A stretch of DNA of 64,000 bases from Minisyncoccota bacterium. GTDB lineage: Bacteria > Patescibacteriota > Minisyncoccia > Phycocordibacterales > UBA9973. The notes beneath the pieces were generated by a model. It did not search any database and had not been told where the DNA came from. It saw only the letters and a program-made list of their open reading frames with translations. The position numbers were made by a program, and so were the translations under genes. The DNA is taken from positions 94,866 to 158,865 of the forward strand of contig JANOFO010000009.1 in the NCBI GenBank assembly GCA_031413715.1, given 5' to 3'. Each line of letters opens with the position of its first letter. Position 1 is the stretch's first letter. This document shows positions 148 to 18,817 of this stretch, one piece after another.

Positions 148-1845
148 ATGAATGACCTAACAGAAAAAAGAATATGTCAGAATTGTAAGGGTGACTTTAT
201 GATCGAACCAGATGATTTTGGGTTTTATGAGAAGTTAAACGTTACTCCGCCAACACATTGTCCAGATTGCAGACGACAGCGCCGACTATCTTGGCGGAAT
301 GATTATGTGTTTTATAATCGCGAATGTGATTTATGTAGGAGAAAAATAATTTCTATTTATTCTCCAGATAACCTTCAAGTTATTTATTGCAATAAATGCT
401 GGTGGAGCGATGCGTGGGATCCAAAAGAATATGCTCAAGATTTTGACTTTAATCGTCCATTCTTTGATCAATTTAGTGAATTCCGACAAAAGATACCTAC
501 TTTAGCGCTTGTTAATGATAACGGAAGTGGTAGTGAAAATTGCGAATATGTACAAAATGTTCAATACAGCCGTAATTGCTATATGGCAATGGTGGCGTGG
601 AAGATAGAAGATTGCATGTATTTCTCATATGGGGCTGATGCCAAAGGAGCTGTTGATTGTATGGGAATATTTGGCACAAGCGATGGGATTTATGAAGCAT
701 TATATAGTGAAAAATGCTTCGGTTCCCGCTATATCCAAAATTGCACATCCCTGATTAATTGTTCTCTTTGTTACGATTGTCACGGTTGTGATAGCTGTTT
801 TATGTCAGTTGGATTACGAAATAAAAAATATTATTTTAAAAATCAGGAATATTCAAAGGAAGAATATGAGAAAATTGTAAAAGAATATAAGCTCAACACT
901 TATTCTGGCACAGAAAAAGCCCTTCTAGAATTCAATGAATTTGCCCTGACTCAACCTCATAAATACAGTTTCTTGCTTAATTGCGCTACATCTACAGGCA
1001 ACAATCTTGTGAATAGTAAAAATGCATTCTCAGTATTCCATGTCCGTCGTGCTGAAGATTGTAAATATCTTGAAAACGGAGACACGGAAAAGGATAGTCA
1101 TGATCTATGCGTTGGGGGAGAGTTAGAACAATGTTATGAAGGCCTTACTCCTGATCACTCACGAAAAGCTCTCTTTACTAATTACACCTGGAAATCATCC
1201 GATGTGTTGTATACAGATTTTTGCATGTCTTGTGCTGATTGCTTTGGATGTGTTGGACTTAAGCATGCAAAATATTCTATTTTCAATAAAGAATACTCGA
1301 AGACAGAATACCAATCTCTCAAAGAGAATATTATTGAGCACATGAAAAAAACAGGTGAGTGGTGTGAATTTTTTCCAATGAAGTATTCGCCTTTTGCATA
1401 TAATGAGTCCATGGCTGAATTATCATTTCCTTTATTAGAAGAGGAAACCAAGAAAAAAGGTTTACGTTTTCAAGAAAATATCCAGCAAACTAGAGGGAAA
1501 ACAACATTAGTTGAAATTCCTGATGCAATTGAAGATGTATCTGACTTAATTACACAAGAGATACTTGGATGTGTGGAGTGTCATAGAAATTATAAAATAA
1601 TTGTTGATGAATTAAATTTCTATAAAAAATGGCGGATACCTGTGCCACACAAATGCTTTTTTTGTCGTCTCAAACGGCGTTTTGAGTTGCGAGGTCCCTC
1701 TACACTCTGGTACCGTTCATGTATGTGTAAGCAAGAAGGGCACGATCATACTGCAGATTGCGGAAATGAATTTGAGACTCCATATGCTCCTGGTAGACCT
1801 GAGATCATTTATTGTGAGTCTTGTTATCAAAAAGAGGTAATATAA
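148..1845 (+). CDS. Cysteine-rich multi-zinc-ribbon protein of unknown function (paralog 1 of a tandem pair).
   Basis: 565-aa ORF. The N-terminal ribbon is CQNCKGDF-IEPDDFGFYEK...CPDCRRQRR and the C-terminal ribbons are C-ECHRNYKII-EL-FY-K...C-FCR and CGNEFETPYAPGRPEIIYCESC. Internal units of the form C-x2-C-x2-C-FG-VGL-x-KY-x-NK-YSK-EY are repeated. It is about 45 percent identical to the downstream ORF by eye. Confidence 0.6.
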   Translation: MNDLTEKRICQNCKGDFMIEPDDFGFYEKLNVTPPTHCPDCRRQRRLSWRNDYVFYNRECDLCRRKIISIYSPDNLQVIYCNKCWWSDAWDPKEYAQDFDFNRPFFDQFSEFRQKIPTLALVNDNGSGSENCEYVQNVQYSRNCYMAMVAWKIEDCMYFSYGADAKGAVDCMGIFGTSDGIYEALYSEKCFGSRYIQNCTSLINCSLCYDCHGCDSCFMSVGLRNKKYYFKNQEYSKEEYEKIVKEYKLNTYSGTEKALLEFNEFALTQPHKYSFLLNCATSTGNNLVNSKNAFSVFHVRRAEDCKYLENGDTEKDSHDLCVGGELEQCYEGLTPDHSRKALFTNYTWKSSDVLYTDFCMSCADCFGCVGLKHAKYSIFNKEYSKTEYQSLKENIIEHMKKTGEWCEFFPMKYSPFAYNESMAELSFPLLEEETKKKGLRFQENIQQTRGKTTLVEIPDAIEDVSDLITQEILGCVECHRNYKIIVDELNFYKKWRIPVPHKCFFCRLKRRFELRGPSTLWYRSCMCKQEGHDHTADCGNEFETPYAPGRPEIIYCESCYQKEVI

Positions 1846-1849
1846 ATAT

Positions 1850-3577
1850 ATGGAAACCCGAAACTGCCAAAATTGTAAAAAAGATTTCAACATAGAACCA
1901 GATGATTTTGGGTTTTATGAGAAAATCAGCGTACCTGCGCCGACTTTTTGCCCAGATTGTCGAAGGCAAAGACGCTGGGCATGGCGCAACAATATGTCTC
2001 TCTATTCCCGAAAGTGCGAGCAATGTGATAAATCAGTTGTTTCTCTATATTCTCCAGAATCTGATTTTACTGTCTATTGCAATAAATGTTGGTGGAAAGA
2101 TACGTGGAGTCCAATTGATGATGGAGTAGACTATGATTTTTCTAGGCCATTCTTTTCGCAATTTAGGGATTTGCTACAAAAAGTACCTCAAATAGCTGTA
2201 GTCAACGATGATGGAATCGCAAGTATCAATTGTGAGTACACTCATGACTGGTGGTTTTCAAAAGATTGCTATATGTGCTTTGTAGGTTGGCGTGCAGAAA
2301 ATGTCATGTACAGCTTCTTTGTCCTTGCTGGTAAGAATATGATGGACTGCATGAATATTCGCTCCACAAACGAATGGATGTATGAGTGTATAATGTCGAG
2401 CCAATCCTATCAGCTTAAATATTCAGAATTCTCAAAATCATGCTTGAATTCACAATTCCTGTACAATTGCGTAGGTTGCTCCGATTGCTTCATGTGCTTT
2501 GGTCTTCATAATAAGAAATATAATTTCAAGAACGAGCAGTACTCTAAAGAGGAATATGAAAAAATACTTGAGAGTTATAGACTCGATACATTTTCAGGAG
2601 TAGAGAAAGCAAATAAAGAGTTTAATTCTTTGCTTACTAAATTCCATAGAAGATTTGCTCAGATATATCATAGTACAAATTGTACTGGTGATATTATTTC
2701 TTTTTCAAAAAATGTAAAGAATTCTTTTATCATTAAAAATGGTGAAAATATTAAATATTCTGATTTTGCAGGAGGTAGTGCTGGATCGAAAGATTCTTAC
2801 GACATAACTACTTCAGGAGAAATGTCAGAATGTTATGAAACGATAGTCGCGGATCATTCGCAGCTAAATCTGTTTGGAATCTTCTCAGTCAAAAGTCAGG
2901 ATATACGTTATTCTCAACATTGCCACAATTGTAAACATGTTTTTGGTTGTGTTGGGCTTCGTAACTCTAGTTACTGCATTTTAAATAAACAGTATACAAA
3001 AGAAGAATACGAAGCATTACTTCCTAAGGTAATCGAGCATATGAATACTATGCCGTATATCGACAAAATGGGTATAGTCTATAAGTACGGAGAATTTTAT
3101 CCTATTGAGCTGTCTGTGTTTGGATATAATGAATCCCACGCACCTGAGCTAGTGCCATTTTCAAAAGAAGAAGCACAGATTCGAGGATACAATTGGCAGG
3201 ACAATGTTCAAAGAACAACAGGAAAGGAAACCATAACACCCGAAAATATCCCTGAATCTATTCACGATATCTCTGATACAATCACTGATGAAGTACTTTC
3301 TTGTATAGAGTGTAAGAGGAATTACAAAATAATTCCAAATGAACTAACTTTCTATCGCAAGATGCTGATACCTATTCCACGAAGATGCTTCTATTGTCGT
3401 CATCAGGCTCGTATTAACAAAAGGAATCCTTTCAAACTCTGGCATAGAGCTTGTATGTGTGATATGAAAGGACATGAACACGAAGGGAAGTGTGCTATTG
3501 AATTTGAGACAACTTATTCACCCGAGAGACCCGAAGCCATATACTGCGAAAAGTGCTTTCAAATAGAATTTAATTAG
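1850..3577 (+). CDS. Cysteine-rich multi-zinc-ribbon protein of unknown function (paralog 2).
   Basis: 575-aa ORF starting 5 nt after paralog 1. It has the same N-terminal CxNCKKDF-IEPDDFGFYEK...CPDCRRQRR motif, the same C-terminal CIECKRNYKII...CFYCR and GKCAIEFETTYSPERPEAIYCEKC motifs, and the same internal Cys-rich repeat units. Confidence 0.6.
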   Translation: METRNCQNCKKDFNIEPDDFGFYEKISVPAPTFCPDCRRQRRWAWRNNMSLYSRKCEQCDKSVVSLYSPESDFTVYCNKCWWKDTWSPIDDGVDYDFSRPFFSQFRDLLQKVPQIAVVNDDGIASINCEYTHDWWFSKDCYMCFVGWRAENVMYSFFVLAGKNMMDCMNIRSTNEWMYECIMSSQSYQLKYSEFSKSCLNSQFLYNCVGCSDCFMCFGLHNKKYNFKNEQYSKEEYEKILESYRLDTFSGVEKANKEFNSLLTKFHRRFAQIYHSTNCTGDIISFSKNVKNSFIIKNGENIKYSDFAGGSAGSKDSYDITTSGEMSECYETIVADHSQLNLFGIFSVKSQDIRYSQHCHNCKHVFGCVGLRNSSYCILNKQYTKEEYEALLPKVIEHMNTMPYIDKMGIVYKYGEFYPIELSVFGYNESHAPELVPFSKEEAQIRGYNWQDNVQRTTGKETITPENIPESIHDISDTITDEVLSCIECKRNYKIIPNELTFYRKMLIPIPRRCFYCRHQARINKRNPFKLWHRACMCDMKGHEHEGKCAIEFETTYSPERPEAIYCEKCFQIEFN

Positions 3578-3605
3578 TCTATCTAATCGTGTATAATATC
3601 CCTGT

Positions 3606-4187
3606 ATGACTGAAACAATAGAATTTTTCGCAAACTATAAACATATATCTGTGATTATTCACGTCTTGTCTGTGGTTGCTGGCATGGGGGCGGCACTTAT
3701 TTCGGATGTGCTATTTAATATTTATATCAAGGACAGGAAAATCCAAGCGAATGAAGATCGGACACTCGCTACGCTTTCCAATATTATATGGATTAGTCTT
3801 TTCTTTATAATTCTCAGTGGACTCGCGCTTTTTCTTTCGGAACCTCTCAAGTACGCTTATTCAGTGAAATTTTTAGTGAAAATGACGATTGTTGCGGTGA
3901 TTATCGTAAATGGCTACGCTTTCTGGAGATTGATTCACCCTGCGCTACGCAAAATGAATTTCACCGATACGAACATGCATCATAAATACGTGAAGCTTCG
4001 CAAAGTATCATTTGCCATGGGAGCGATATCGCTTGCCTCATGGCTCTCTGCATTCATACTCGGCATGCTCGGGCATATTCCGCTCACATATCTTGAAGCG
4101 ATTGCCGGCTACATGGCTATATGTTTCGGCGGCATTCTTGTCAGTCAGATCATTGAATATCGAATGACACATGGAAGAGCGGATTAA
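3606..4187 (+). CDS. Hypothetical integral membrane protein (about 4-5 TM helices).
   Basis: 193-aa ORF dominated by hydrophobic helical segments. I recognise no family. Confidence 0.5.
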   Translation: MTETIEFFANYKHISVIIHVLSVVAGMGAALISDVLFNIYIKDRKIQANEDRTLATLSNIIWISLFFIILSGLALFLSEPLKYAYSVKFLVKMTIVAVIIVNGYAFWRLIHPALRKMNFTDTNMHHKYVKLRKVSFAMGAISLASWLSAFILGMLGHIPLTYLEAIAGYMAICFGGILVSQIIEYRMTHGRAD

Positions 4188-4236
4188 CTTATACTCAATT
4201 TATACGATCGTTAGAAATGAGTATAAAGTAGTGTAG

Positions 4237-4830
4237 CTACTTGTTAGTAAACAGTCCAGATAGATATTTTTTCTTTATTCCTATAATTATAATCGTGTTG
4301 GCTATAAGCAAATAAAGCGGAAAAGCGAAATTTAAAAAATAAAAATCAGTAATAATCAAAAAAGTAACAAGCGAACTAAGGTTGCCATAAAGATATGGCC
4401 CAATGCTCTCTGTCTCACTATGCTTCCAAGCTTTTAGAATGGTTGGAAGTCCTGCAAAAAGATCGGCAAGGATTGCAAATAGTACAGAAAGATTCGCATT
4501 CTTTGTTGTGACCCAGATAATAATCGCGCTGAGAGAAAGAGCGCCACATATAATATCAAACATTGTTACTTTCCAATATGAATGTTTATTGAAAAAAGAA
4601 GCGAGGACTACGAGCAGAGGTCCAAACCCCGCCATAAACGTACTTACTAAAAGGGGAGTAGAAACTCCAGATCTGTAAAGAACATATACTCCCACGAACG
4701 GAGCAATCGTCCAAAAGATCCATGAGACGCGATTTGGCTTTGTCTTCCCTAGGAAAGTATCCTTGATGTAGAAGAAAATTCCGAGAAGACTAATAACAAT
4801 CGTAAAATAGGCGAAATATTCAGGAAGCAT
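4237..4830 (-). CDS. Hypothetical integral membrane protein.
   Basis: 197-aa ORF with multiple hydrophobic helices. I recognise no family. Confidence 0.5.
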   Translation of the reverse strand: MLPEYFAYFTIVISLLGIFFYIKDTFLGKTKPNRVSWIFWTIAPFVGVYVLYRSGVSTPLLVSTFMAGFGPLLVVLASFFNKHSYWKVTMFDIICGALSLSAIIIWVTTKNANLSVLFAILADLFAGLPTILKAWKHSETESIGPYLYGNLSSLVTFLIITDFYFLNFAFPLYLLIANTIIIIGIKKKYLSGLFTNK

Positions 4831-4940
4831 AATGTGGGAATTATAATACTTTTTTAGATATGTGTAAATGTGTCTTTTGATGAATTTACTTTATACTGAT
4901 ATAATTAGTCATTACAAGGTAACGTTTCTCATAAATAGAT

Positions 4941-5939
4941 ATGAAAACAAAACTAGAGTACGTATGGCTTGATGGTTATACTCCAGAGGCAAGTTTGCGA
5001 AGCAAGACGAAAGTTGTCGACGGTAAAATTAAAGATTTAAAAGATGTACCCGAATGGTCTTTTGACGGAAGTTCGACAAAGCAGGCTGCCGGTCACTATT
5101 CAGATTGCCTGCTTCGTCCTGTGGCAATGATCCCAGATCCAGGCCGAGCTGATGCGATGCTTGTCATGTGCGAAGTGCTTAATCCCGACGGTACTCCACA
5201 CGAGACAAATGCCCGAGCTCTTGTAAAGGACGTAGCTGATTTGTGGTTCGGTTTTGAGCAGGAGTATGTGATTATGAAAAATGGAAGGCCGGTCGGCTTT
5301 CCAGAAGATGCAGAAAAGTTTCCTGCTCCGCAAGGGCCATACTACTGCGCTATCGGGACAGAAAATATAGCTGGGCGCGATATAGTAGAGAAACACCTTG
5401 ATCTCTGCCTCTCTGCAGGCCTAGGCGTCACAGGCATCAATGCTGAAGTTCTTCTTGGGCAGTGGGAATATCAACTTTTTACAAAAGGAGCATTACTTTC
5501 TGCCGATCTGCTGTGGCTTTCCCGGTATCTACTTATTCGGACAGCCGAGGCGCATAACGTATCGATTACATTTCATCCGAAACCTCTCACTGGGGATTGG
5601 AACGGTTCCGGCATGCACACAAATTTCTCGAACGAACGCATGCGCACATCTGGCGGCAAGGACTATTTCGAATCTATTTTCAAGGCATTTGAACGCAATC
5701 ATAAGAAGCATATAGATGTCTATGGCTCGCAGAACGACAAGCGTTTGACCGGCAGCCATGAGACGCAGAGCATCAATGCGTTCAGCGTCGGAATCAGCGA
5801 CAGAGGCGCGAGCATTCGCATTCCTCAGACGACGGTTGGCCATGATTATAAAGGATATCTCGAAGACCGCCGTCCCTCAGCCCATGCCGATCCCTATAAG
5901 ATTGTCAAAGTCATAAGCGAAACCCTGGCTGAAGCTTAA
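4941..5939 (+). CDS. glnII: Glutamine synthetase type II (eukaryote-like GS-II).
   Basis: It is nearly collinear with eukaryotic/GS-II sequences. The N-terminus has EYVWLDGY and EWSFDGSSTKQAAGHYSDCLLRPVAM-PDP. The middle has GPYYCAIG and GINAEVLLGQWEYQ. The catalytic region has NWNGSGMHTNFS. The C-terminus has RIPQTTVGHDYKGYLEDRRPSAHADPY. GC is visibly higher than in flanking genes. Confidence 0.9.
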   Translation: MKTKLEYVWLDGYTPEASLRSKTKVVDGKIKDLKDVPEWSFDGSSTKQAAGHYSDCLLRPVAMIPDPGRADAMLVMCEVLNPDGTPHETNARALVKDVADLWFGFEQEYVIMKNGRPVGFPEDAEKFPAPQGPYYCAIGTENIAGRDIVEKHLDLCLSAGLGVTGINAEVLLGQWEYQLFTKGALLSADLLWLSRYLLIRTAEAHNVSITFHPKPLTGDWNGSGMHTNFSNERMRTSGGKDYFESIFKAFERNHKKHIDVYGSQNDKRLTGSHETQSINAFSVGISDRGASIRIPQTTVGHDYKGYLEDRRPSAHADPYKIVKVISETLAEA

Positions 5940-6003: not shown

Positions 6004-8124
6004 ATGGACAACAACATTCCACAAAACCGCGATATAACCTACTTTGGTCGGACCAATTTTCGCAGCACGAACAATATCTTCGGCATAAAGCGTAAAGATA
6101 GGCGTCAGCACATGTACGTCCTTGGTAAATCTGGTACTGGTAAATCTGTCCTCCTCTCAAACCTCATTGTCCAAAATATCAATAATGGCGAAGGTGTCTG
6201 TGTTGTTGATCCGCACGGCGAACTCGTCGAAGAAATCCTTCACCTCATTCCCGATCATCGTGCTAAAGATGTAATCTATTTCAATCCGGCAGATATCGAT
6301 TTCAATGTCGGGTTCAATGTTATCGCCCTCGAAGATCCAAAGTACAAACACTTGGTTGCCTCGGGGCTGATGGGAATATTTACCAAGATCTGGGCTAATG
6401 CTTGGAGCTCTCGTATGGAATATATTCTCAATAACGCTATCTTAGCGCTTCTCGATACTCCCGGCACAACCCTTCTTGGTATCCCAAGACTTCTCGTCGA
6501 CAAAGATTATCGTCAGATGATCATCGGCAATTTAAAAGATCCAGTTGTGAAAGCCTTCTGGGTGCATGAATATGAACAATGGCGTGAACAGTTTCGTAAC
6601 GAAGCCATCGCTCCGATTCAGAACAAAGTCGGACAATTCCTCTCTACCTCTATCATCCGTAATGTCGTCGGGCAATCAAAGTCTACAATCGATATCTTCA
6701 AGATCATGAACGAAGGAAAGATATTCTTGGTCAACGTGTCCAAAGGTCGTGTTGGTGAAGACAACTCAGCACTTCTTGGAGGCATGATTATTACAAAGAT
6801 TCAGCTTGCTGCTATGGAGCGTGTCCGTATCCCCGAGGATGAACGCAAGGACTTCTACTTGTATGTGGATGAGTTCCAAAACTTCGCGACTGATTCATTT
6901 GCAAATATTCTTTCAGAAGCTCGAAAATATCGTCTTAATCTTATCATTGCTCACCAATACACTGCACAACTTTCCAATGAAAATGGCACGGCTGTCCGCG
7001 ATGCAGTTTTCGGCAACGTTGGTACGATGATCATCTTTCGTGTTGGCGCTGATGATGCTGAATTCATAGAGAAAGAATTTGAACCAGAATTTACGGCTCA
7101 AGATCTGGTGAATTTGCCGAACTACCACATATATTTAAAACTCATGATTGATGGAGTTACGAGCAGGCCATTCTCGGCGAGTACGCTTCCACCAATGAAA
7201 ATTGACCTGTCTGCTGGTGTGAAAGAGAAGATTATCGAAACATCTCGCAGATTGTATGCCCGACCGCGCGAAGAAGTAGAAATGGAGATTTCCAAGTGGA
7301 GTGGTATGCTCCAAGTTGGTGATGAAGCAGCAAAATTTAAAGCTGACTGTTCGAACTGTGGCAAAGTCACTATGGTGCCTTTCGAGCCAAAAGAAGGCCG
7401 ACCCGTATATTGCAAGGACTGTATGTTCAAGATCAAAAGCGGGGAACTCAAGCCTCAAACGGGATTTGTGGCTTCGCGTTCCGCTCGCCAAGATGAGAGG
7501 ACCTCAACCCAACCCCTTGCCCTCCTTGGTATCGAATTCCAAAGTACTGGTACTAAACCGCCTGAGATAAAGCCTCGAGTATCTACTCCATCAAACTTCT
7601 CAAAATCATCTCCAAATTCAAATACAAGAGCTCCTTTTATTCCAGGGCAACGAACTGATAATAAACCGCCCGAAAGAAAGCATTCTGGCCCATCACCTCT
7701 ACTCCGAGGTTTGCTTGAAAAGATAGGTATGGAAAATAATAAACCCGTGCCACCAAAGGTAGCGTCCCAAGTGACTGAAGTTAAAACGATTCCAGTACCT
7801 CCGCCAATGTCTCTTTCGAGTTTGAAGAAACCTACCCCGAATGAAGTGGGAAAATCTTCTTCTCAAGCTACACCCCCTCTACCAATAAAGGAAGCATCAG
7901 AAGAAAAAAAAGCAACCCTCAAGGATTTGCTCGCTCGCGCCACCGCTTCAAAGCCAGAAGAGAAAAAAGAAGAAACTAGGCCAAGCCACGAATTTACTAA
8001 TTCGCCTATACCAGTTCCTCCTATTCCACAAGCCAAACAGGAAGATACAAAAACAGATACATGGCAGAAACGTACTGCTGAGAAAGAAGTTCCAGAAGAA
8101 GTTTTAAGAAAAGTATTAGAGTAA
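6004..8124 (+). CDS. VirD4/TraD-like (T4CP, FtsK-HerA superfamily) P-loop ATPase with a C-terminal zinc ribbon and a long disordered P/S/K/E-rich tail. It has no N-terminal TM segment.
   Basis: The Walker A motif is VLGKSGTGKS, followed by VCVVDPHGE and IYFNPADIDF-VGFNVI, which look like T4CP motifs. The Walker B motif is FYLYVDEFQNF, followed by LIIAHQYTAQL. The C-terminus has CSNCGKVTMVPFEPKEGRPVYCKDC and then about 250 residues of low-complexity sequence. GC is higher than the window average. Confidence 0.6.
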   Translation: MDNNIPQNRDITYFGRTNFRSTNNIFGIKRKDRRQHMYVLGKSGTGKSVLLSNLIVQNINNGEGVCVVDPHGELVEEILHLIPDHRAKDVIYFNPADIDFNVGFNVIALEDPKYKHLVASGLMGIFTKIWANAWSSRMEYILNNAILALLDTPGTTLLGIPRLLVDKDYRQMIIGNLKDPVVKAFWVHEYEQWREQFRNEAIAPIQNKVGQFLSTSIIRNVVGQSKSTIDIFKIMNEGKIFLVNVSKGRVGEDNSALLGGMIITKIQLAAMERVRIPEDERKDFYLYVDEFQNFATDSFANILSEARKYRLNLIIAHQYTAQLSNENGTAVRDAVFGNVGTMIIFRVGADDAEFIEKEFEPEFTAQDLVNLPNYHIYLKLMIDGVTSRPFSASTLPPMKIDLSAGVKEKIIETSRRLYARPREEVEMEISKWSGMLQVGDEAAKFKADCSNCGKVTMVPFEPKEGRPVYCKDCMFKIKSGELKPQTGFVASRSARQDERTSTQPLALLGIEFQSTGTKPPEIKPRVSTPSNFSKSSPNSNTRAPFIPGQRTDNKPPERKHSGPSPLLRGLLEKIGMENNKPVPPKVASQVTEVKTIPVPPPMSLSSLKKPTPNEVGKSSSQATPPLPIKEASEEKKATLKDLLARATASKPEEKKEETRPSHEFTNSPIPVPPIPQAKQEDTKTDTWQKRTAEKEVPEEVLRKVLE

Positions 8125-8164
8125 ATTTAAGATAAATTTATCAGCGTTTGTTTACGATAGATTT

Positions 8165-9565
8165 ATGATGACGAATAGAATATTTTATTTTTGCGCCACT
8201 TTTATTGTAGTGTTTTTTGCGTTTGGTCGTCTAGCTCATGCAGGATTTGAAATCAGCGAAATTATGTACGATCTCGATGGTACTGATACCAATCGTGAAT
8301 GGGTTGAAGTGGAGAATACTGGAACTGAATCGGCTGATCTTTCGAAATGGTTCTTCTTTTCTGATAATTCCAAGCATGTCCTTGTCTCACAAGGAGAGTC
8401 TATGGTACCACCTGGCGGATTTGCGGTTGTTGCTCAGAATGTAGGCCGTTTTAGGAGTGATTGGCCAAATTTCTTAGGACTTCTATTTGATAGCAGTTGG
8501 ACTGGTTTCAATAATGAAGGGGAAACGATTGCACTCAAAGATCCTGATCTAAATCTTTTGAGCAATGTAGCCTTTACCGCGACTCAAGGCGCATCCGGTG
8601 ACGGTAATTCACTTCAGAAAGTTACCAACACTTGGTTTGCCGCAGTTCCTACACCAGGTGCGACCAATCAGTCAGGCTCTTTCGATGAAGGCGTAGATAA
8701 AACGTCAAATCCTACTTCTCCATCACCTGTCAAAAAGAAAGAAATTGAAGTACCGAAAATTACTACGAATATAATTACAAAAAGCACTGTTTTTTCCGGC
8801 ATACCATTTGAAGTTGATGCGACTACGTTTGGCTATAGCAAAGAGCCTATTAAGATGGGTCGCTTTGTATGGAATTTTGGTGATGGAACAATGAAGACTG
8901 AATATGAACATGCAAAATTTGAGCATGAATACCACTATCCAGGAGAGTATGTCATCATGCTTTCTTATTATCGTGCTTGGACTGGTCCAGTCCTAGAGGC
9001 GACTGACCGTGTCGCTATCACTGTTATTCCACCCCTGTTATCTATCAGTTCGGTAGGCAAGGCCAGTGATCCATATGTGGAGATTAGTAATAAATCTACT
9101 TTAGAAGTTGATCTCTCGAGATGGATAATCCAAGGATCAATACATCCTTTCGTAATACCTGAAGGCACTATTATTTTGCCAAATCAGAAGCTCCGTTTTG
9201 GAAGCCGAGCTACAAATTTTAGCATCTATGACATGCAGTCTATAATCTTGCTCAATACCAACAAGGAATCCTTAGCCACTTATCCAGTAGGTTATAAAGG
9301 GGCATCATCTTCCCCAAAAAGTGGGTCGACTGCAGATGTTGTTTCGAATTCTAGTTCACCGTCGGTCATCAATCTAAATGATCTAGGCGCAAGTGCAAAT
9401 GATGCAAAGAGTATAAAAAGTTTACCAGGCAATATCTTTGCTTGGATGGGATCGATTGGGATAATTATCATTGGACTCGTCAGCATCATTCTTATTCATC
9501 GAAAGGGTTCAAAAGAGGCTCCTAACAAAGAATTAGAAGTTGAAGACATGAAGATCATAGAGTAG
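8165..9565 (+). CDS. Secreted or cell-surface protein with a lamin-tail domain (LTD), a PKD-like domain, a second LTD-like domain, and a C-terminal TM anchor.
   Basis: An N-terminal signal peptide is followed by an LTD signature (FEISEIMYDLDGTDTNREWVEVENTG-DLS-W...GETIALKDPD). The PKD-like motif is FVWNFGDGT...EYHYPGEYVIM. A C-terminal hydrophobic helix (IGIIIIGLVSIILI) gives the membrane anchor. Confidence 0.7.
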   Translation: MMTNRIFYFCATFIVVFFAFGRLAHAGFEISEIMYDLDGTDTNREWVEVENTGTESADLSKWFFFSDNSKHVLVSQGESMVPPGGFAVVAQNVGRFRSDWPNFLGLLFDSSWTGFNNEGETIALKDPDLNLLSNVAFTATQGASGDGNSLQKVTNTWFAAVPTPGATNQSGSFDEGVDKTSNPTSPSPVKKKEIEVPKITTNIITKSTVFSGIPFEVDATTFGYSKEPIKMGRFVWNFGDGTMKTEYEHAKFEHEYHYPGEYVIMLSYYRAWTGPVLEATDRVAITVIPPLLSISSVGKASDPYVEISNKSTLEVDLSRWIIQGSIHPFVIPEGTIILPNQKLRFGSRATNFSIYDMQSIILLNTNKESLATYPVGYKGASSSPKSGSTADVVSNSSSPSVINLNDLGASANDAKSIKSLPGNIFAWMGSIGIIIIGLVSIILIHRKGSKEAPNKELEVEDMKIIE

Positions 9566-10481: not shown

Positions 10482-11063
10482 TCAAGAATTCAGCTTCTTC
10501 AAGGCCTTTGGAATTTTCTTGAAGTCTTTCATGAGCGTCTCGCGCATCCCGCCATTGTAAAGTGCTGCGGCGGGGTGGTAGAGTGGGAGGAAGGCCTGCT
10601 TTTTTCCAAGCTCGGGAATATTTTTTATAAGAAGCTTGCCGTGGATATCAGAGATCTTTTCAGTAGGGAAGAATCGAGTCATAGAGTGTCTGCCTAGGAA
10701 AATTATGAGTTTTGGTTCTATTATTTTAAGCTCGCTTATGAGCCAATCGTTACAGGCTGCTTTCTCTTCAGGCTCTGGATCCCGATTATTTGGCGGGCGA
10801 TACTTTACAATATTTGTAATATAAATATTTTCTCGCTTCATCTTTATGCTCTCTAGCATTTCTGCCAAGAACTTGCCTCCAGCACCGACGAATGGTCGGC
10901 CCTCAATGTCCTCATTTTTCCCTGGAGCCTCGCCTATGAACACAACTTCCGCTTCAGCGTTGCCATCGCCAAATACCGCCTGAGTGGCGGTCTTCTTCAA
11001 TGGACATGTACAATGCTCTTTCCAATAAGCATTTAGTTCATCAAGCTGTTCTCGTTTTGTCAT
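10482..11063 (-). CDS. Uracil-DNA glycosylase, family 4.
   Basis: Motif A is [21 protein letters not shown] and motif B is HPAAALYN. The protein is 193 aa. Its start overlaps the murA stop by 1 nt. Confidence 0.85.
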
Positions 11064-12583
11064 TACTTTAGTATTTTAATATTTGCACCGATAGAATTCA
11101 ATCGCTCGGCTATTTCTTCATATCCACGGTTGATCATGTATACATTACGAAGTATCGATGTGCCTTCGGCTGCAAGCATGCAGATGAGTATGACCATCGA
11201 TGGGCGTAGCGCCGGCGGGCAGACCACTTGGGCTGCTGTGAGGGGTGTGCCTCCTGTGATATAAGCACGGTGAGGGTCGGCAAGGGTTACATTGGCGCCG
11301 AGGCGGTTGAGTTCTGTGAAGTAGATTGCGCGATTCTCATACACCCAGTCGTGGATCATCGTTTGACCCTTGGCCACGATAGCTGCAGGTACAAAGAAGG
11401 GAAGATTGTCCATGTTTATGCCTGGATACGGATTCGCATGGATCTTATCTGGCGGAGCAGTAAGTGTACTTTCCATGATTTCGATATCAACTAGTTTTGT
11501 GCGATTATTATACGATTCATATTTTTTTAATATTTTATACTTGAGTCCCATCTTCGCAAGCTTGTAGAGCTCAAGAGCAAGGAAGTCTATCGGAGCGCGC
11601 GTGATGGTGAGGTTTGAATTTGTGACAATTGCTGCCGAGATGAACATCATAGATTCTATCGGATCCTCGCTATTGTGATATTCGATATTCTTATTTATAT
11701 TTTTCACCCCATGTATTTTTAGAGTCGTTGTGCCAATACCGGTAATTTTTACTCCGAGCTTGCTGAGGAAAAAGCAGATCTCCTGCACCATATAGTTTGC
11801 ACTTGCAAATTGCATTGTGGTAACTTTGTCGATGCCAGCTGCCGCAGTCAATATATTCTCACAAGCAGTATCGCCAGCTTCGTACATAATAATGTTCGCA
11901 GATTTGAGCTTTCCAACTGTGATATCATATTTATCACGACTTATCTTAATTCTTACTCCTAGTTCATGAAGGGCATATCTGTGTGCAGCGATCGTACGCT
12001 TGCCTAAGTTGCATCCTTCAGCGTTAGGAAGAGAGAAGGCATCAAGGTGATGAATAAGCGGACCGATAAGCATAAGGACGGAGCGAGTTCGGATTGCAGA
12101 TTTTACGTTTATATTTTTTAAATTGAATTTCTTCGGTGGTGTAATATGGACCGAATTCTGACCTATCCATTTTACTTTCACGCCGATACTCTCGAGTATT
12201 TCAATAACGCGATACACTTCTTCTATCCGAGCAATACCGTGGAGTGTTGTGATGCCACGATTGAGAAGAGAAGCGCACAAAAGGCCGACCGATCCATTCT
12301 TGGAATAATTTGTTGTAATACTACCCTTGAGTTTACGTCCTCCCTCAATTTGAAAGTCTGGGGAATCATTGACTGATACAATTTCATGCTCAAGAACCTT
12401 GCTTATCTTTGCCAAGAGCTCAGTTGTAAAATTCTGCTCGCCTTTCTCCATGCGAGGGATTGAGCTCTGCGAAGTACCGAGTGCCTTGGCAAGGGCGCCT
12501 TGAGTCATACCCCGACGTTCGCGGAGCTTCTTGATAAAGAAGCCTATTTTTTGAGTCTCTGTTAATTTCTTCATATTTCGCAT
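11063..12583 (-). CDS. murA: UDP-N-acetylglucosamine 1-carboxyvinyltransferase (MurA) with a fused N-terminal XRE-family helix-turn-helix domain.
   Basis: Residues about 14-70 are a Cro/C1-type HTH (RGMTQGALAKALGTSQSSIPRMEKGEQNFTTELLAKISKVL). The remainder is collinear with MurA: it has GSVGLLCASLLN and the catalytic-Cys loop NAEGCNLGKRTIAAHR, and it ends RGYEEIAERLNSIGANIKILK. The protein is 506 aa, against about 420 for a canonical MurA. Confidence 0.85.
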   Translation of the reverse strand: MRNMKKLTETQKIGFFIKKLRERRGMTQGALAKALGTSQSSIPRMEKGEQNFTTELLAKISKVLEHEIVSVNDSPDFQIEGGRKLKGSITTNYSKNGSVGLLCASLLNRGITTLHGIARIEEVYRVIEILESIGVKVKWIGQNSVHITPPKKFNLKNINVKSAIRTRSVLMLIGPLIHHLDAFSLPNAEGCNLGKRTIAAHRYALHELGVRIKISRDKYDITVGKLKSANIIMYEAGDTACENILTAAAGIDKVTTMQFASANYMVQEICFFLSKLGVKITGIGTTTLKIHGVKNINKNIEYHNSEDPIESMMFISAAIVTNSNLTITRAPIDFLALELYKLAKMGLKYKILKKYESYNNRTKLVDIEIMESTLTAPPDKIHANPYPGINMDNLPFFVPAAIVAKGQTMIHDWVYENRAIYFTELNRLGANVTLADPHRAYITGGTPLTAAQVVCPPALRPSMVILICMLAAEGTSILRNVYMINRGYEEIAERLNSIGANIKILK

Positions 12584-12611: not shown

Positions 12612-13634
12612 ATGTTAGAGATTAAAGAAAATGTGGATATCAAAGAATACTGTACACTCCGAGTTGGAGGGCAGTTCCGCTATTTTGTAGAGCTAAATGA
12701 TCCACAGGATCTACCCTTGCTTTACGAATTTGCGAAAGAGAAAAATCTGCCAGTCTTTATATTGGGTGGCGGATCCAATCTAGTCTTTCCTGACGGTATT
12801 TTAAATACTGTGGCTGCCCGCATACAGTTTTGCGGACTTGAAATTTTATCTGATACGGATACACACGTAGATCTCAGGGTTGGAGCAGGAGAATCTTGGG
12901 ACTATATTGTCGAAAATACAGTAGAAGCAAATCTCTGTGGTATTGAGGCTATGTCGGCTATCCCCGGTACTATCGGCGCTACTCCAGTGCAGAATGTGGG
13001 TGCGTACGGCCAGGAAATAAAAGATGTCCTCCAGTCTGTAGATGTATTTGATACAAGCGATAGGGCTTTTAAAACTCTTACAAATGAAGAATGTCATTTT
13101 TCATATAGAAATAGCATATTTAAAAGTGATGCAAAGGGGAGATATGTGATAGTGGCAGTTACTATCAGGCTCGAGAAGCGGGCACCCTACATACCAAACT
13201 ATCCAGGCGTTAAAAAGTATTTCCTCGAGCAAAATATCAACAATCCTACGATACAGGAAATACGTCAAGCTATTATCGAGATCCGAAAGAATAAATTGCC
13301 TGATCCAAAAGATATACCAAGCGTAGGATCATTTTTCAAGAATAGTATCGTTTCAAATGACATAGCCAAGAATTTGAAAAATGAATATCCTGAGATGGTC
13401 TTGTTCCCACTCAATGAAAAAGAAACAAAAGTCCCATCAGGATTCCTTATTGAAAAAGCTGGGCTAAAAGGGCACAATTTTGGGACTATTTCTTCCTATC
13501 CTCATAACGCCATGGTTCTCGTCAATAATGGCGGGGCGACACGGGCAGATGTAGAGAGCACTCGAGATGAAATCGTAAAGATTATCTATGAAAAATTCGG
13601 CATCACCCTCGAGACTGAACCTGAGTTTGTGTAA
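12612..13634 (+). CDS. murB: UDP-N-acetylenolpyruvoylglucosamine reductase (MurB).
   Basis: The FAD-binding PCMH domain start is YCTLRVGGQFRYFVE...LPVFILGGGSNLVF. The protein is 340 aa and is divergent from murA. Confidence 0.85.
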   Translation: MLEIKENVDIKEYCTLRVGGQFRYFVELNDPQDLPLLYEFAKEKNLPVFILGGGSNLVFPDGILNTVAARIQFCGLEILSDTDTHVDLRVGAGESWDYIVENTVEANLCGIEAMSAIPGTIGATPVQNVGAYGQEIKDVLQSVDVFDTSDRAFKTLTNEECHFSYRNSIFKSDAKGRYVIVAVTIRLEKRAPYIPNYPGVKKYFLEQNINNPTIQEIRQAIIEIRKNKLPDPKDIPSVGSFFKNSIVSNDIAKNLKNEYPEMVLFPLNEKETKVPSGFLIEKAGLKGHNFGTISSYPHNAMVLVNNGGATRADVESTRDEIVKIIYEKFGITLETEPEFV

Positions 13635-13635
13635 G

Positions 13636-14199
13636 CTATTCTTTCCAAAGATTTATTTCTTTGATAAAATTAATAACATTTTTTGATAGTCTAACAACAT
13701 ATTTTGTTTTTTCCTTATGAATGACCTTTCTTATTTGAGGTTTGTATCCTAATTTATGCAAACTTTCAAAATAGATGAATGCTAGTTTTTCAATAATCGT
13801 TGTAAAATTTATCATTAGATACCCTCGATCTTTATAAATCGAGCCGTCTGTCTGAGTTAATCCTCGAAGACATTCTTTTGTATATATCTTGTTGTTTAAA
13901 ATCCATAAAGGTATTGAAACATTCTGCCTAAATTTTGATCCACCTTTTGCTTTCCACCCAAGAAGTTCTTCAAGCATATTTGAATGAACATACACATCAA
14001 CACAGCCCTTTCTTTTTATTTCTGAAACTTTATTTTTCGGTAATAGGAGTTGCAATGATTTCTTAATGTGATCTTTCAAAATAGGATATTTATTATCACA
14101 GCTAATGCGAAGTTTAACCGCACGACCATTCGAATTCGATAGATTACCATCTCCAATTGCTACACCTACTATATATGCTAAAAGCTTCTTATTTTTCAA
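13636..14199 (-). CDS. LAGLIDADG-family homing endonuclease-like protein (two motifs, monomeric type). It may use a TTG start.
   Basis: Motif 1 is LLAYIVGVAIGDGNL and motif 2 is LRGLTQTDGSIY. The protein is 187 aa and basic or K-rich. Its 5' end lies 2 nt from the 3' end of tRNA-Leu on the same strand. Confidence 0.7.
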   Translation of the reverse strand: MKNKKLLAYIVGVAIGDGNLSNSNGRAVKLRISCDNKYPILKDHIKKSLQLLLPKNKVSEIKRKGCVDVYVHSNMLEELLGWKAKGGSKFRQNVSIPLWILNNKIYTKECLRGLTQTDGSIYKDRGYLMINFTTIIEKLAFIYFESLHKLGYKPQIRKVIHKEKTKYVVRLSKNVINFIKEINLWKE

Positions 14200-14200
14200 G

Positions 14201-14282
14201 TGCCAGGGGAGGGACTCGAACCCTCAAGTCTTGCGACGATCGATTTTGAGTCGATTACGGTTACCAATTTCGCCACCCTGGC
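14201..14282 (-). tRNA. tRNA-Leu (anticodon CAA).
   Basis: The reverse-complement is GCCAGGGTGGCGAAATTGGTAACCGTAATCGACTCAAAATCGATCGTCGCAAGACTTGAGGGTTCGAGTCCCTCCCCTGGCA. It has a 7-bp acceptor stem, anticodon loop CTCAAAA, a long variable arm and a GTTCGAGTC T-loop. Confidence 0.9.
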
Positions 14283-14334
14283 ATTTACAGGGCTAGTATA
14301 CCAAAATATACTTAAAATGCTAGAATAAGCCCGT

Positions 14335-15810
14335 ATGCCAGAACGAAAGCCAAATTTCACTCCACAACAAGACCAAACCTTTCAAAGTAAAGAAGCTATT
14401 TCCGAGAAACAGTTAGAAAATATAAAAGAAGTATTTGAATTAAATCCTGAATTAGCTGAAATCACTGAAAAAGCGTCTCGTTTATTTCTAGTAAATTCGA
14501 TTCAAAAAGAGAAATCAGAAAAGGAATTATCGTCAGATTTAAAAGAATACTACAAAAAACATTCTGAGAATAAAGAATGGTTAAATATCATATCAGTATA
14601 TCCTCAAGAATTACAAAGAAAAATTATAGAAAAAAGACCAGAGGGCACAGTAGAGAATGTTATAGAACTTCGTGAAAGGTTAAATGAAGAATGGAATCGA
14701 ATTTCTGAGTTATTCCTTAAAGGTTTTTATGAAGGACAAGGTAAGGAGCTTGAAAATGTTCTTACAGCAGGAAGATTTGGTCGTGAAAAGTTAAATTATG
14801 ATGATGAAAGAAAGATTGATGAAATAATTTCAAATATATACACTTGGTTTGACCGTTTTGCGAGTGTTTATTTGCATAAGTTTGAAATTTATCCAGATGA
14901 GAATGTTCGTCAGACTTTCGGTATGAGAAATGTTAGTCTAGATGAAGTGTCACTCAATGATGTTAGAAAAGATAAAGATTGGTACACGAAAGTTGACCTT
15001 TTTATCGAGCAATATTTTAGATTCCTTGCAGCCGGCACCAACGAAAACAAACTAGAGCTAGCAGTACATCTTTTAGATTTTGCTGAGTATTTTGGGAAAA
15101 AAAGTTCAACTGAAGAATATTTTAAGAATTTCCAATTATTACAAAATAACCTTGATCCATCAAAAACAAAAGATAAATCAAGAACATTCTCACCTTTAAA
15201 CAGAGTGGAATCAAATAATAAGACAAATATACTATGGTATTACGGAAACCAAAAAAATCTAAAGTATATGAGAATATTGCCAGACGGGTATGAAATACAG
15301 AACCATTTAAAATCTTATACGAAACCAGGCTTAGAAACATCAAACCATGCGAAAGAATTATATAAAGAGTATCTAGAATCTATTTTCCCTGAAAGTAAGG
15401 TTAAAGATGTTCTTTGGCATGGCAGTAAAGATGTAAAAAAGATTGAGGTGTTTAATAACAGATACTTCAACACAGACCTGAATACTTATGTGAATGGGGT
15501 CTATTTTTCGTTCGGTGTAGATTATGCAGATGATTATAAAAAAGGTAGAAGAGAAGGAGAAGATCTGACTCATTCGGGGACAGTTGCCGCTGTTCTTAAT
15601 GTTAGAAATCCAAAAGAAGCAATAGATGGCGCACGCATGGCTTTAATTAATGATGATGAGCTTAAGCAGCTGAAGGCTGATGGTGCGGATGCTCTTATGT
15701 ATATGAACGAAGAAATTGCAGTTTTTGATAATCAACAAATACATATACTTGGCACAGATAATGATATAGAAGAATTTAAAAAATGGGCAGAAAATCAAAA
15801 TGAAAAATAA
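14335..15810 (+). CDS. Protein with a C-terminal PARP-like (H-Y-E class) ADP-ribosyltransferase catalytic domain. The first roughly 350 N-terminal residues are K/E-rich and helical, with unknown function.
   Basis: The C-terminal region aligns to PARP catalytic signatures. VLWHGS (H362-G-S) matches PARP1 LLWHGS. NGVYFSFGVDYADDY matches the PARP/diphtheria-toxin-class GIYFA...Y. YMNEEIAVFD matches PARP1 LYNEYIVYD, with the catalytic Glu at about residue 459. The spacing between His, Tyr and Glu fits the fold. Confidence 0.6.
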   Translation: MPERKPNFTPQQDQTFQSKEAISEKQLENIKEVFELNPELAEITEKASRLFLVNSIQKEKSEKELSSDLKEYYKKHSENKEWLNIISVYPQELQRKIIEKRPEGTVENVIELRERLNEEWNRISELFLKGFYEGQGKELENVLTAGRFGREKLNYDDERKIDEIISNIYTWFDRFASVYLHKFEIYPDENVRQTFGMRNVSLDEVSLNDVRKDKDWYTKVDLFIEQYFRFLAAGTNENKLELAVHLLDFAEYFGKKSSTEEYFKNFQLLQNNLDPSKTKDKSRTFSPLNRVESNNKTNILWYYGNQKNLKYMRILPDGYEIQNHLKSYTKPGLETSNHAKELYKEYLESIFPESKVKDVLWHGSKDVKKIEVFNNRYFNTDLNTYVNGVYFSFGVDYADDYKKGRREGEDLTHSGTVAAVLNVRNPKEAIDGARMALINDDELKQLKADGADALMYMNEEIAVFDNQQIHILGTDNDIEEFKKWAENQNEK

Positions 15811-16993
15811 ATTACCTTTATCATACATTGAACTCTCAAAAAAGAACTTGATTCACAATATCAAGCAGTTTCGACGTATCGTAAAACGAGGGACAAAGAT
15901 TGCAGGAGTTGTAAAAGCCAATGCGTATGGTCATGGAGATGTAGATGTGGTGAAAATTCTGAATCCCTATGTCGATTATTTCCAAATCAATAGCGTTGAA
16001 GAACTCGAGAAGATCCGTCCTGTTACAAAAAAACCAATCCTTTTACTTGGATATGTCGGTAAAAATGATATCACTCGCGCAATAAAGCTCGGATGCATAC
16101 TCCCAGTATTTGATCTACATCACGCTCTTCTTGTAAACGAATCTGCTCGTAAACTCGGAGTAAAGCCCACCAGACCGAACGGTCATTCGGGCAGGCAGAA
16201 AGTTCATATTGCGATTGATTCACATTTAGGAAGGGAAGGCATATTGCCATCACAAGTCCCAGGGTTTCTTACTGAGATTAAGAAAATGAAACATCTTGCT
16301 GTTGATGGTATATATGCGCACTTTGCAAATATTGAGGATATCAGCCTGGATGAATCGTTCGGACGGGCAACTAACTTTTCTCATGCAAATAAACAAATAA
16401 AAGATTTTGAAGAGGCAGTAAAGCTTTTTAAGGAAGGAGAATATAAAAACATTAAAACCCATATCTCTGCAACATCAGGAGTCCTCGCCTATGAAAAGTG
16501 GCGGGGTTTGCATTCTATCGTACGCGTAGGCGTAGGTCTCTATGGTATGTGGCCAAGCGTGGAATTACAAAAAGTTTGGCAAAAGAAAATTGAGCTTAAG
16601 CCTGTGATGCGCTTCATCACGCATGTTGCCCAAGTAAAAGTTTTACCAATTGGCGAGTCTATCGGCTATGGTCTCTCGTACATTACAAAAAAGAAGACCC
16701 TGATCGCTGTCATACCCCAAGGCTATTCGAACGGCATTAGTCGCTTATCATCAGGGAATGGCGAGGTTCTTATTAGAGGCGAGAGAGCACCTATTTTAGG
16801 CCGTATAGCTATGAATATGTTTGTCGTTGATATTAGCAATATCAAAGGAGTGAAGCCTGAAGATGAGGTTATTATTCTCGGAAGCCAAAAAGGGGAGACA
16901 ATATCGGCTGAAGATCTAGCCTCTCAAACCAAGACCATTAATTACGAGGTCACGACCCGAATCAGCCCCCTTTTGCCTAGAATCTCGGTGTAA
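15800..16993 (+). CDS. alr: Alanine racemase.
   Basis: The PLP-binding signature is VVKANAYGHG. The protein is 397 aa with a conserved C-terminal beta-domain. The start overlaps the upstream gene by 11 nt. Confidence 0.85.
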   Translation: MKNKLPLSYIELSKKNLIHNIKQFRRIVKRGTKIAGVVKANAYGHGDVDVVKILNPYVDYFQINSVEELEKIRPVTKKPILLLGYVGKNDITRAIKLGCILPVFDLHHALLVNESARKLGVKPTRPNGHSGRQKVHIAIDSHLGREGILPSQVPGFLTEIKKMKHLAVDGIYAHFANIEDISLDESFGRATNFSHANKQIKDFEEAVKLFKEGEYKNIKTHISATSGVLAYEKWRGLHSIVRVGVGLYGMWPSVELQKVWQKKIELKPVMRFITHVAQVKVLPIGESIGYGLSYITKKKTLIAVIPQGYSNGISRLSSGNGEVLIRGERAPILGRIAMNMFVVDISNIKGVKPEDEVIILGSQKGETISAEDLASQTKTINYEVTTRISPLLPRISV

Positions 16994-17579: not shown

Positions 17580-18008
17580 CTAACTTTTTTGAAGCCAATA
17601 GACTCCCGCAACAATTATAATTATACTCATAATTTTCTGTGAATTAATTTGCTCACCTAAAATCATCCAAGCAAATAATGTTGTTCCTACTGGCATTAAA
17701 CAGCTAATCATAACTACATACTTGGATATATCAAACCCAGAGTTTGAAGCTAATAATGAGCTGTATGCAATCATACCTACACCATTTATTATTCCAGCCA
17801 GTACAATAATAGCTACTCCTTTTGTAGTCGAGCCATTAGATAACTGAATATCATTCTTTAGATACATATATATTACTGCTGTTAAGGCTGTAACAACACA
17901 TACAAAGAAAGTAATGGTTGAGGTAGGTAATTTGCTTACTTTCGCAAGAGAAGGCCATAAAGACCAAACTATTACGCATATCAATGTTAAACCGAGTGGA
18001 TTTTGCAT
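17580..18008 (-). CDS. Small multi-TM membrane protein (EamA/SMR-like, 4 TM).
   Basis: 142-aa ORF with four hydrophobic helices. A hairpin plus T-tract lies downstream at about 17527..17575. Confidence 0.5.
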   Translation of the reverse strand: MQNPLGLTLICVIVWSLWPSLAKVSKLPTSTITFFVCVVTALTAVIYMYLKNDIQLSNGSTTKGVAIIVLAGIINGVGMIAYSSLLASNSGFDISKYVVMISCLMPVGTTLFAWMILGEQINSQKIMSIIIIVAGVYWLQKS

Positions 18009-18237
18009 ATCTTTAATTTTTTTGGTTCAAGAAATTGCATTCAATCTACATCTATTTTTATGTTTTGTCAAATCATTGTAGTAATTTCGCGTGTCTATTG
18101 ACTTATATATATTTTATGTTACCATAAAGGTAAATTTAAACTTTGTAATAATGGAGGTTGTTGGATGATCTAAGTTTCTTATTTTTTTTGAGATATTTAG
18201 ACCATCCAATTTAATCACCAATAGTAAACTTGAAAAA

Positions 18238-18510
18238 ATGAAGAAATTAACTCAATTTACAGAAGAAAATGCAATGTATATTGCAAAGTTATTAAACGAA
18301 GAATATGACAGATTCTATGTCTGGGAAGATAAAGTAATGATAGGTTTGAAGGAAAAAAATGGCAAAGAACAAAGTGTTTATATCTATCCAACTGGTCAGG
18401 TTTCTTTTCTTTATAATGACGGTGAACCAGGTGGTTCAGGTTATAAAGATATAAATACACTTCCTATTACTGATTATCTGCGCAAACAGGGTTTTGAATT
18501 TAAATACTAA
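18238..18510 (+). CDS. Hypothetical small protein.
   Basis: 90-aa ORF followed by a 10-bp stem terminator (CACCCTGCAA...TTGCAGGGTG plus a T-run) at about 18550..18586. Confidence 0.45.
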   Translation: MKKLTQFTEENAMYIAKLLNEEYDRFYVWEDKVMIGLKEKNGKEQSVYIYPTGQVSFLYNDGEPGGSGYKDINTLPITDYLRKQGFEFKY

Positions 18511-18817
18511 AGGATACCCGCTTCTACAAAGAATTAGAGATTATATCCCCACCCTGCAAGTAAAATTGCAGGGTGTCTTTTATTTTCTCATTATACATCA
18601 TTAGATGTTGACATTAGTTTTAATAAATATAATATAAAAAGTAATGAACGGGTACTTGGTCTGTATCTGCCTCCGTTTACGGAACATTTAAGGACTAGTA
18701 AGTGCTCATGCGGATTGGCATTTATTTAAGTTAATACATCGCAGCCAATAAGACACTTTAAGCCTGGGTTCTATAACCTGGGCTACTTTTTATTGTATTT
18801 TGAAAGCCCGTACTTTC

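Follow-up and report, generated by a model that had tools for sequence, protein, structure and literature searches.

A 64,000-nucleotide stretch of a Minisyncoccota genome (contig JANOFO010000009.1, positions 94,866 to 158,865; hereafter the window) carries, between murB and alr, a gene for a 491-aa protein that is best explained as an NAD+-dependent ADP-ribosyltransferase (ART) of the ART-PolyVal/Tox-ART-HYD2 family, with an intact active site, a helical insertion and a history as acquired cargo; we put the probability of this reading at roughly 0.6. The initial annotation of this DNA, made from the letters and their open reading frames (ORFs), had described the 491-aa ORF, quoted three PARP-like motifs from its C-terminus and placed it after tRNA-Leu and a LAGLIDADG gene between murB and alr, and all of these are present. 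A protein identical to it (P0001) occurs in public assemblies. ART-PolyVal itself is already known, as a large family described in 2017; what is new here is the insertion architecture, the wide occurrence of ART-PolyVal as solo genes (those with named sources being from Candidate Phyla Radiation (CPR) bacteria and one DPANN archaeon), and a mapped cargo slot.

On the evidence of sequence profiles, the window protein is a member of the ART-PolyVal/Tox-ART-HYD2 group within the H-Y-[EDQ] clade of ARTs, and not of the PARP family. ART-PolyVal was defined as the H-Y-D ART of polyvalent proteins and placed within the Tox-ART-HYD2 clade, kin to PARPs, Gig2 and the diphtheria and cholix toxins (Iyer, Burroughs, Anand, de Souza and Aravind, 2017; PMC5512222). 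Scans of the full-length window protein against Pfam, NCBIfam, PADLOC and PHROGs returned no significant family, and its isolated C-terminus scored 23.2-24 bits (E 7.5e-5 to 1.3e-4) against Pfam PF18760, the ART-PolyVal family. The closest homolog, P0002, which is 48% identical over the full length, passes the PF18760 cutoff at 37-41 bits, the window protein matches a hidden Markov model (HMM) of short solo relatives at 137 bits (E 2e-43), and PF18760 is matched by 43 of the 50 short relatives. Pfam PARP (PF00644) gave no match at E<=1 with the full-length protein or at E<=10 with the isolated C-terminus, and PARP_reg (PF02877) was not matched by the helical upstream region in Pfam scans. The earlier description of the protein as PARP-like thus holds at the level of fold and clade and fails at that of family, which is PF18760 rather than PF00644. 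The accompanying view that it is not Tpt1-like stands, the window protein having neither the H-H-h active site nor the PTS_2-RNA match of Tpt1/KptA.

The fold evidence comes from an AlphaFold2 model of residues 329-491, built from a 50-sequence alignment, which reached a predicted local distance difference test (pLDDT) score of 88.8 and a predicted template modelling (pTM) score of 0.82; a full-length model with four sequences reached pLDDT 46, was too poor, and was left out of fold searching. The C-terminal model is predicted to adopt the split beta-sheet of the ART fold, and Foldseek agrees, with the catalytic domains of tankyrase and PARP1 as the top structural neighbours. Viral predicted structures (BFVD) match better, with E down to 2e-6, under the annotations PolyVal ADP-ribosyltransferase, ART-PolyVal-like, MuF fusion and N4-like virion RNA polymerase. 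Model and fold search together bear out the C-terminal ART fold of the H-Y-[EDQ] clade that had been proposed. At the level of sequence the family profile found no match at E<=1 among PDB sequences. Compared with PARP and tankyrase, to which it is 12-18% identical, the window ART is a minimal core of ~150 residues with a helix between beta3 and beta4; it lacks the PARP regulatory helical domain and shows no sign of poly(ADP-ribose) synthesis. Structural scores for diphtheria toxin, exotoxin A and the RES toxins ParT and MbcT lie under those of PARPs or PolyVal ARTs, and unlike these toxins the window protein lacks translocation and receptor domains as well as a cognate antitoxin. The cyanophage A4 pre-ejectosome 'tail protein' (PDB 9k3a chain B) is unlike the window protein in being a 1,071-residue structural ejection protein, is without a detectable sequence-profile match when the family profile is compared with PDB chains, and is not described as having an ART domain or activity in its own paper (PMC12002296).

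The active site of the window copy is predicted to be complete (Table 1). An H-Y-E triad is formed by H362, Y390 and E460, the last assigned by strand position and family conservation, and these residues fall on predicted strands beta1, beta2 and beta5, as in the histidine-strand 1, tyrosine-strand 2, acid-strand 5 configuration of ART-PolyVal. The window protein retains each of the 16 family positions with at least 90% conservation. An hhalign comparison of the family profile with the PARP1 catalytic region (E 2e-4) pairs H362 with H862, G388-V-Y390-F with G894-I-Y896-F, and Y401 with Y907. The catalytic acid is likely to be E460 rather than E459, because E460-IAVFD pairs gaplessly with what we take to be the PARP1 sequence E988-YIVYD; E460 is also placed as the first residue of strand beta5 in the AlphaFold2 model and is invariant in the three insertion-bearing homologs that keep the ART. 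The initial annotation had named E459, a variable position, as the catalytic glutamate, and the E459A mutant that it proposed would therefore probably miss the catalytic residue.

The N-terminal 350 residues, which had been set apart as a separate region, prove to be organized otherwise: an insertion of ~290 residues lies inside the ART module, behind the module's own N-terminal element. The 216-position HMM of solo relatives aligns with two separate, collinear parts of the window protein, its positions 9-42 falling on residues 12-46 (18.4 bits) and its positions 41-192 on residues 339-490 (137 bits). Among the 45 long matches within proteins of at least 600 aa, 29 have the N-terminal element (consensus GVDEVFEQNPELAKIGT) ahead of the core, some of these being modules thousands of residues from the protein N-terminus; since it stands before the core inside giant proteins too, it belongs to the ART module, and residues ~47-338 are therefore a true insertion. 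The motif VFExNPEL was considered as an N-terminal tag specific to solo proteins and was rejected, being present also on internal modules of giant proteins. The insertion is predicted to be all-helical, at low-to-moderate confidence. Sub-threshold matches of the helical region to Pox_polyA_pol_N (E 0.0056), to AAA_14 in P0004 and to the N-terminal domain of prolyl-4-hydroxylase (E 0.006 in PDB, and E 0.015 for Pfam P4Ha_N with P0003) were judged to be compositional or coiled-coil noise. Neither a signal peptide nor a transmembrane segment was found in the window protein (maximum Kyte-Doolittle 19-mer 0.37).

Within ART-PolyVal this insertion is confined to a clade of five sequences, the exhaustive profile search having found relatives of it in only four other protein clusters: P0002, from a Candidatus Nomurabacteria metagenome-assembled genome (MAG), P0005, from a Saccharibacteria MAG, and P0003 and P0004, on short metagenome contigs. 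Identity within the clade is 45-53% for the insertion against 41-42% for the ART. Conservation of the HGS, Y and E positions, on which the initial annotation had made its case depend, holds in the wider family and in the window copy but not in the immediate clade, where the histidine of the H362 position is kept in only two of the five insertion-bearing proteins.

The surroundings of two clade members deserve separate mention. P0002 lies in a tight cluster of four genes (186, 328, 470 and 118 aa, the 470-aa product being the ART) at 1545-4865 of locus L001 in the Nomurabacteria MAG (CALRAL010000005.1). The 186-aa neighbour has its first ~32 residues (MAFDKPPQN...NPDF) in common with P0002 and a different body, and the 118-aa gene overlaps the P0002 ART stop and looks membrane-embedded. 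None of the neighbours in the cluster has a Pfam family, and no homologs of the cluster genes, nor paralogs of the ART, were found in the window. P0005, in the Saccharibacteria MAG (CAYYYT010000088.1), is preceded by an XRE-type helix-turn-helix (HTH) gene (HTH_3, E 9e-19; locus L009, 72-284) 4 nt upstream, a pairing that resembles a toxin-antitoxin or regulator pair and has no counterpart in the window.

Bacterial ARTs of this kind had been called rare, a claim that the wider searches overturn for this family. An exhaustive HMMER search of 1.84 billion representatives (50% identity), with a profile of the window protein and P0002, found 934 proteins at E<=1e-3, of which 322 reach E<=1e-10, all but four of the matches covering only profile positions ~335-499. 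A profile search of a 5.8-billion-sequence collection found at least 1,198 proteins (90% clusters) at E<=1e-5, and nearly all of the 120 matches listed from it carry PF18760; IMG/VR holds 267 viral-contig loci that encode relatives. A word-indexed homolog search with the C-terminus alone had given no match, which the later HMMER result identifies as a limit of its sensitivity. The solo proteins whose source is named belong to MAGs of Patescibacteria, Nomurabacteria and Pacearchaeota, with contigs of up to 488 kb, and all three of the solo loci examined are singletons among housekeeping genes, without a conserved partner, which is itself a likeness to the chromosomal window gene. These uncharacterised proteins (e.g., MCX6757707.1 of Candidatus Nomurabacteria) resemble the window protein in having the module with N-terminal VFExNPEL and in sharing the motifs Y..YL.TIFPESK.KD(I/V)V(Y/W)HG(T/S) and (V/I)VF.P.QIHILGS..DI..FK; they differ from it in their length of ~180-260 aa and in the lack of the insertion, and are 28-39% identical to its core.

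Relatives on viral contigs have a different setting, 29 of the 37 loci examined lying inside ORFs of 1,500 to >4,000 aa, and the giant relatives join ART-PolyVal with LPD23, a metallopeptidase-like domain, DUF3990 and DUF7831. Isolate phage and plasmid collections, searched by tblastn with the C-terminus, yielded no match at E<=1e-3, and the link to phages is visible only in uncultivated viral contigs and by structure. With the ART-PolyVal domains of phage and conjugative proteins (PMC5512222) the window protein shares its sequence family, the histidine on beta1, aromatic residue on beta2 and acid on beta5, its best BFVD matches and its viral-contig relatives; unlike them it is a 491-aa chromosomal protein, outside any phage or conjugation locus and not part of a large polyvalent protein. 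Residence in such giants is a contextual feature and not a requirement of PF18760, because many members of the family are likewise solo.

It is clear that the ART gene is horizontally acquired cargo, lodged beside tRNA-Leu(caa) between the alr promoter and start codon on one side and alr on the other. Five syntenic relatives, in which the order is UDG, HTH-MurA, MurB, tRNA-Leu(caa), Alr, came from a metagenome scan with Alr; the ART gene and the LAGLIDADG gene are both missing from all five, and the gap between murB and alr measures 165-915 bp in them against 2,165 bp in the window. The empty sites, together with a GC content that drops from 0.40-0.46 in the flanking DNA to 0.31-0.35 over 13.5-15.9 kb, confirm the acquired islet that had been suspected. 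The cargo is wired to the alr promoter, because the conserved block that runs into alr in relatives with an empty site runs into the ART gene in the window: in L101, L129 and L131 the block GGCTAGTATACCAAAA..AAAATGCTAGAATAA..ATG leads directly into alr, whereas its window copy (14291-14337) ends in the ART start codon and alr restarts at 15800, within the last codons of the ART gene. The promoter block is also conserved in L094, the nearest of the syntenic relatives (Alr 77% and MurB 75% identical), where the slot (4241-4999, +) holds an unrelated 252-aa gene with no Pfam match. Between L094 and the window, promoter block and first 11 codons (MPEPKPNFNPQ against MPERKPNFTPQ) are ~90% identical and the similarity collapses at ~14370, a pattern that suggests replacement of the cargo body behind a fixed 5' end. 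A regular expression for this short N-terminal peptide, run over ~9,300 ORF starts in the fetched DNA, matched only the proteins from which it was derived, and a role as a general export or cassette tag is speculative.

The free-standing LAGLIDADG gene of the window looks like a recent independent insertion. It fills the space from the murB stop to the 3' end of tRNA-Leu, with a spacer of one base on the murB side and none on the tRNA side, and the corresponding distance between murB and the tRNA in the five syntenic relatives ranges from a few bases to a few dozen. In L096 (4917-4999), one of the syntenic relatives, tRNA-Leu(caa) is inverted (+) and abuts the alr start, which is further evidence that the murB-alr intergenic site is recombinationally active.

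In the mechanism that we propose, H362-G363-S364 and Y390/Y401 would bind NAD+ and stack on the nicotinamide, E460 would activate the ribose, and a single ADP-ribose would be moved to a macromolecular target, most likely a protein, as has been argued for this ART clade (PMC5512222). The helical insertion may supply target recognition, oligomerisation or regulation. The alr promoter would drive the gene of the enzyme as the leading cistron of an ART-alr transcript, co-transcription being likely in view of the 11-nt overlap between the ART stop and the alr start. Neither a macrodomain nor an ARH nor a recognisable immunity gene is present within ~10 kb upstream or within an annotated stretch of ~12 kb that starts ~1.7 kb downstream, in keeping with the earlier remark that a macrodomain partner is lacking nearby, and between the ART gene and that annotated stretch the ORF list holds only alr, tRNA-Trp and short unannotated ORFs; as there is no immunity gene, the enzyme would have no strong toxicity for the producer.

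Several findings weigh against this reading. The window protein stays under the PF18760 gathering threshold of 31.2 bits, and its membership is upheld in spite of this because P0002, the solo profile and the PF18760-carrying relatives link it to the family. ART-PolyVal has been described as H-Y-D, with aspartate at beta5, whereas the acid in the window protein is glutamate. The ART is dispensable or decaying in three of the five insertion-bearing proteins, P0003 having lost the ART core by a clean in-frame deletion, P0004 ending in an unrelated ~70-aa tail instead of the ART, and P0005 having lysine at the H362 position and no Pfam ART match; P0002 has phenylalanine at the Y390 position. The literature searched holds no biochemical data on any ART-PolyVal member, and transferase as opposed to NADase activity, mono- as opposed to poly-transfer and the class of target are all points that we infer, while co-transcription with alr is drawn solely from the 11-nt overlap and the shared promoter block.

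The state of the ART in P0003, P0004 and P0005, together with the higher identity of the insertion than of the ART within the clade, speaks for a reading in which the insertion holds the conserved function, as a scaffold, adaptor or coiled-coil, and the ART core is a relic even in the window copy. We regard this as unlikely, since the window copy keeps every position conserved at 90% or more, including H362, D452, H470 and D477, plus Y390 and E460, and a score of 137 bits against the solo-family profile would be unexpected for a decaying domain. It is a little more doubtful still that the episymbiont exports the ART into a host bacterium or competitor, where it would modify a host target. For such delivery there is a family precedent, carriage with DNA by virions or a conjugative type IV secretion system, itself an inference of the family's describers (PMC5512222); a VirD4/TraG-type coupling ATPase is encoded ~6 kb upstream, the lack of an adjacent immunity gene is consistent with a target that the producer does not have, and the homologs traced to named assemblies belong to MAGs of CPR bacteria, for which an episymbiotic or parasitic way of life has been described. 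Yet five unrelated genes separate the VirD4-like gene from the ART gene, which is not linked to secretion genes, lying between murB and alr while its relatives lie among housekeeping genes; the short N-terminal peptide common to the cargo genes recurs nowhere else among the ORF starts searched, and the host-targeting effector raised by the initial annotation, having neither signal peptide nor transmembrane segment, found no direct support. About as doubtful is a broader scheme in which the tRNA-Leu(caa)/alr-promoter slot would be a cassette-exchange hot spot of this Patescibacteria lineage, with unrelated cargo swapped behind a fixed promoter and 11-codon head, and the insertion-bearing ART would be a lineage-specific, cell-encoded descendant of phage polyvalent ARTs, repurposed as a symbiont-host effector or regulator with the insertion as a new target-recognition module, while gain, inactivation or loss of the ART would depend on the partner.

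A toxin of a toxin-antitoxin, abortive-infection or anti-phage system (DarT-, RES- or CmdT-like), which would modify DNA, RNA or protein or degrade NAD+ on infection, is improbable: PADLOC gave no defence-system match at the window, and the protein has neither an adjacent macrodomain DarG antitoxin nor DarT as its closest fold. Very improbable is the reading, suggested by the wording of the initial annotation, of a true bacterial member of the PARP family (PF00644) that can carry out poly(ADP-ribosyl)ation, for which one could cite the H-Y-E triad with its glutamate, the position of tankyrase and PARP1 as top structural neighbours and the weak matches of four of the 50 short relatives to Pfam PARP (best E 4.2e-5).

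Read as an ART-PolyVal enzyme carried as cargo, the locus is a convenient test case and not a new principle, nor is it the discovery of a rare bacterial PARP. ART-PolyVal is among the commonest predicted macromolecule-modifying domains in phage polyvalent proteins, and a compact, apparently non-toxic, housekeeping-promoter-driven copy with an intact site would offer a convenient entry point to ART-PolyVal targets, for which the versions that occur in nature (intact, H-to-K, core-deleted and replaced) form a ready set of controls. One small clade has split its ART module with a 290-residue insertion that is better conserved than the enzyme, and the mapped empty site documents fine-scale turnover of gene cargo at a tRNA-adjacent promoter in a reduced genome.

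Table 1. Features of the ART gene and its slot in the window. Residue counts are from an alignment of 130 domain instances.
Feature	Position	Strand	Basis or remark
murB	12612..13634	+	
LAGLIDADG homing-endonuclease gene	13636..14199	-	Pfam LAGLIDADG_3, E 7.8e-9
tRNA-Leu(caa), conserved landmark of the variable slot	14200..14282	-	between murB and alr in 5/5 syntenic relatives
Promoter-like block TTTACA-17-TATACT, then TGCTAGAAT	14284..14334	+	top promoter-like site of the region, 10/12 matches
ART gene, 491 aa, ART-PolyVal-type with internal helical insertion	14335..15810	+	ORF and domain matches
First 11 codons (MPERKPNFTPQ)	14335..14367	+	common at the DNA level with the L094 cargo gene
N-terminal element of the ART module, residues ~12-46, including VFELNPELAEI	14368..14472	+	solo HMM match
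Helical insertion, ~290 residues (47-338), no family	14473..15348	+	profile search, helix prediction
ART catalytic core, residues 339-491: beta1 LWHGS, beta2 VYFS, beta5 EIAV, beta6 IHI, C-terminal helix (predicted)	15349..15807	+	
H362, predicted NAD-binding His, strand beta1	15418..15420	+	His in 123/130
G363			Gly in 107/130
Y390, strand beta2 aromatic	15502..15504	+	Y70, F39, W8, H5 of 130
F391			Phe in 117/130
Y401			Y68, F16, W6 of 130
D452			Asp in 120/130
E459			variable: D29, N24, E13 of 130
E460, predicted catalytic acid, start of strand beta5	15712..15714	+	E76, Q19 of 130
H470			His in 122/130
D477			Asp in 130/130
alr (alanine racemase)	15800..16993	+	start overlaps ART stop by 11 nt

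Other features of the window lie at some distance from the slot. An Rfam scan of the window returned tRNAs only. Upstream, at 11063-12583 (-), a MurA of the EPSP_synthase fold carries an N-terminal HTH_3 DNA-binding domain, a fusion kept at ~75-77% identity in the syntenic relatives. The VirD4/TraG/TrwB-type coupling ATPase (706 aa) is followed by an LTD/PKD-domain protein (466 aa) at ~6004-9565 (+), the pair standing ~5-8 kb upstream of the ART gene with the five unrelated genes intervening. A second low-GC patch (0.29-0.30), at 17700-18600 downstream of tRNA-Trp, holds an EamA-family half-transporter and a family-less 90-aa ORF. Further downstream, a class-I aminoacyl-tRNA synthetase of >1,095 aa, from ~28200 to beyond 29955 (+) (L134 1-1755), gives matches to DUF559, MTES_1575 and NUDIX besides its synthetase domains, which suggests that it carries inserted endonuclease-like or NUDIX modules.

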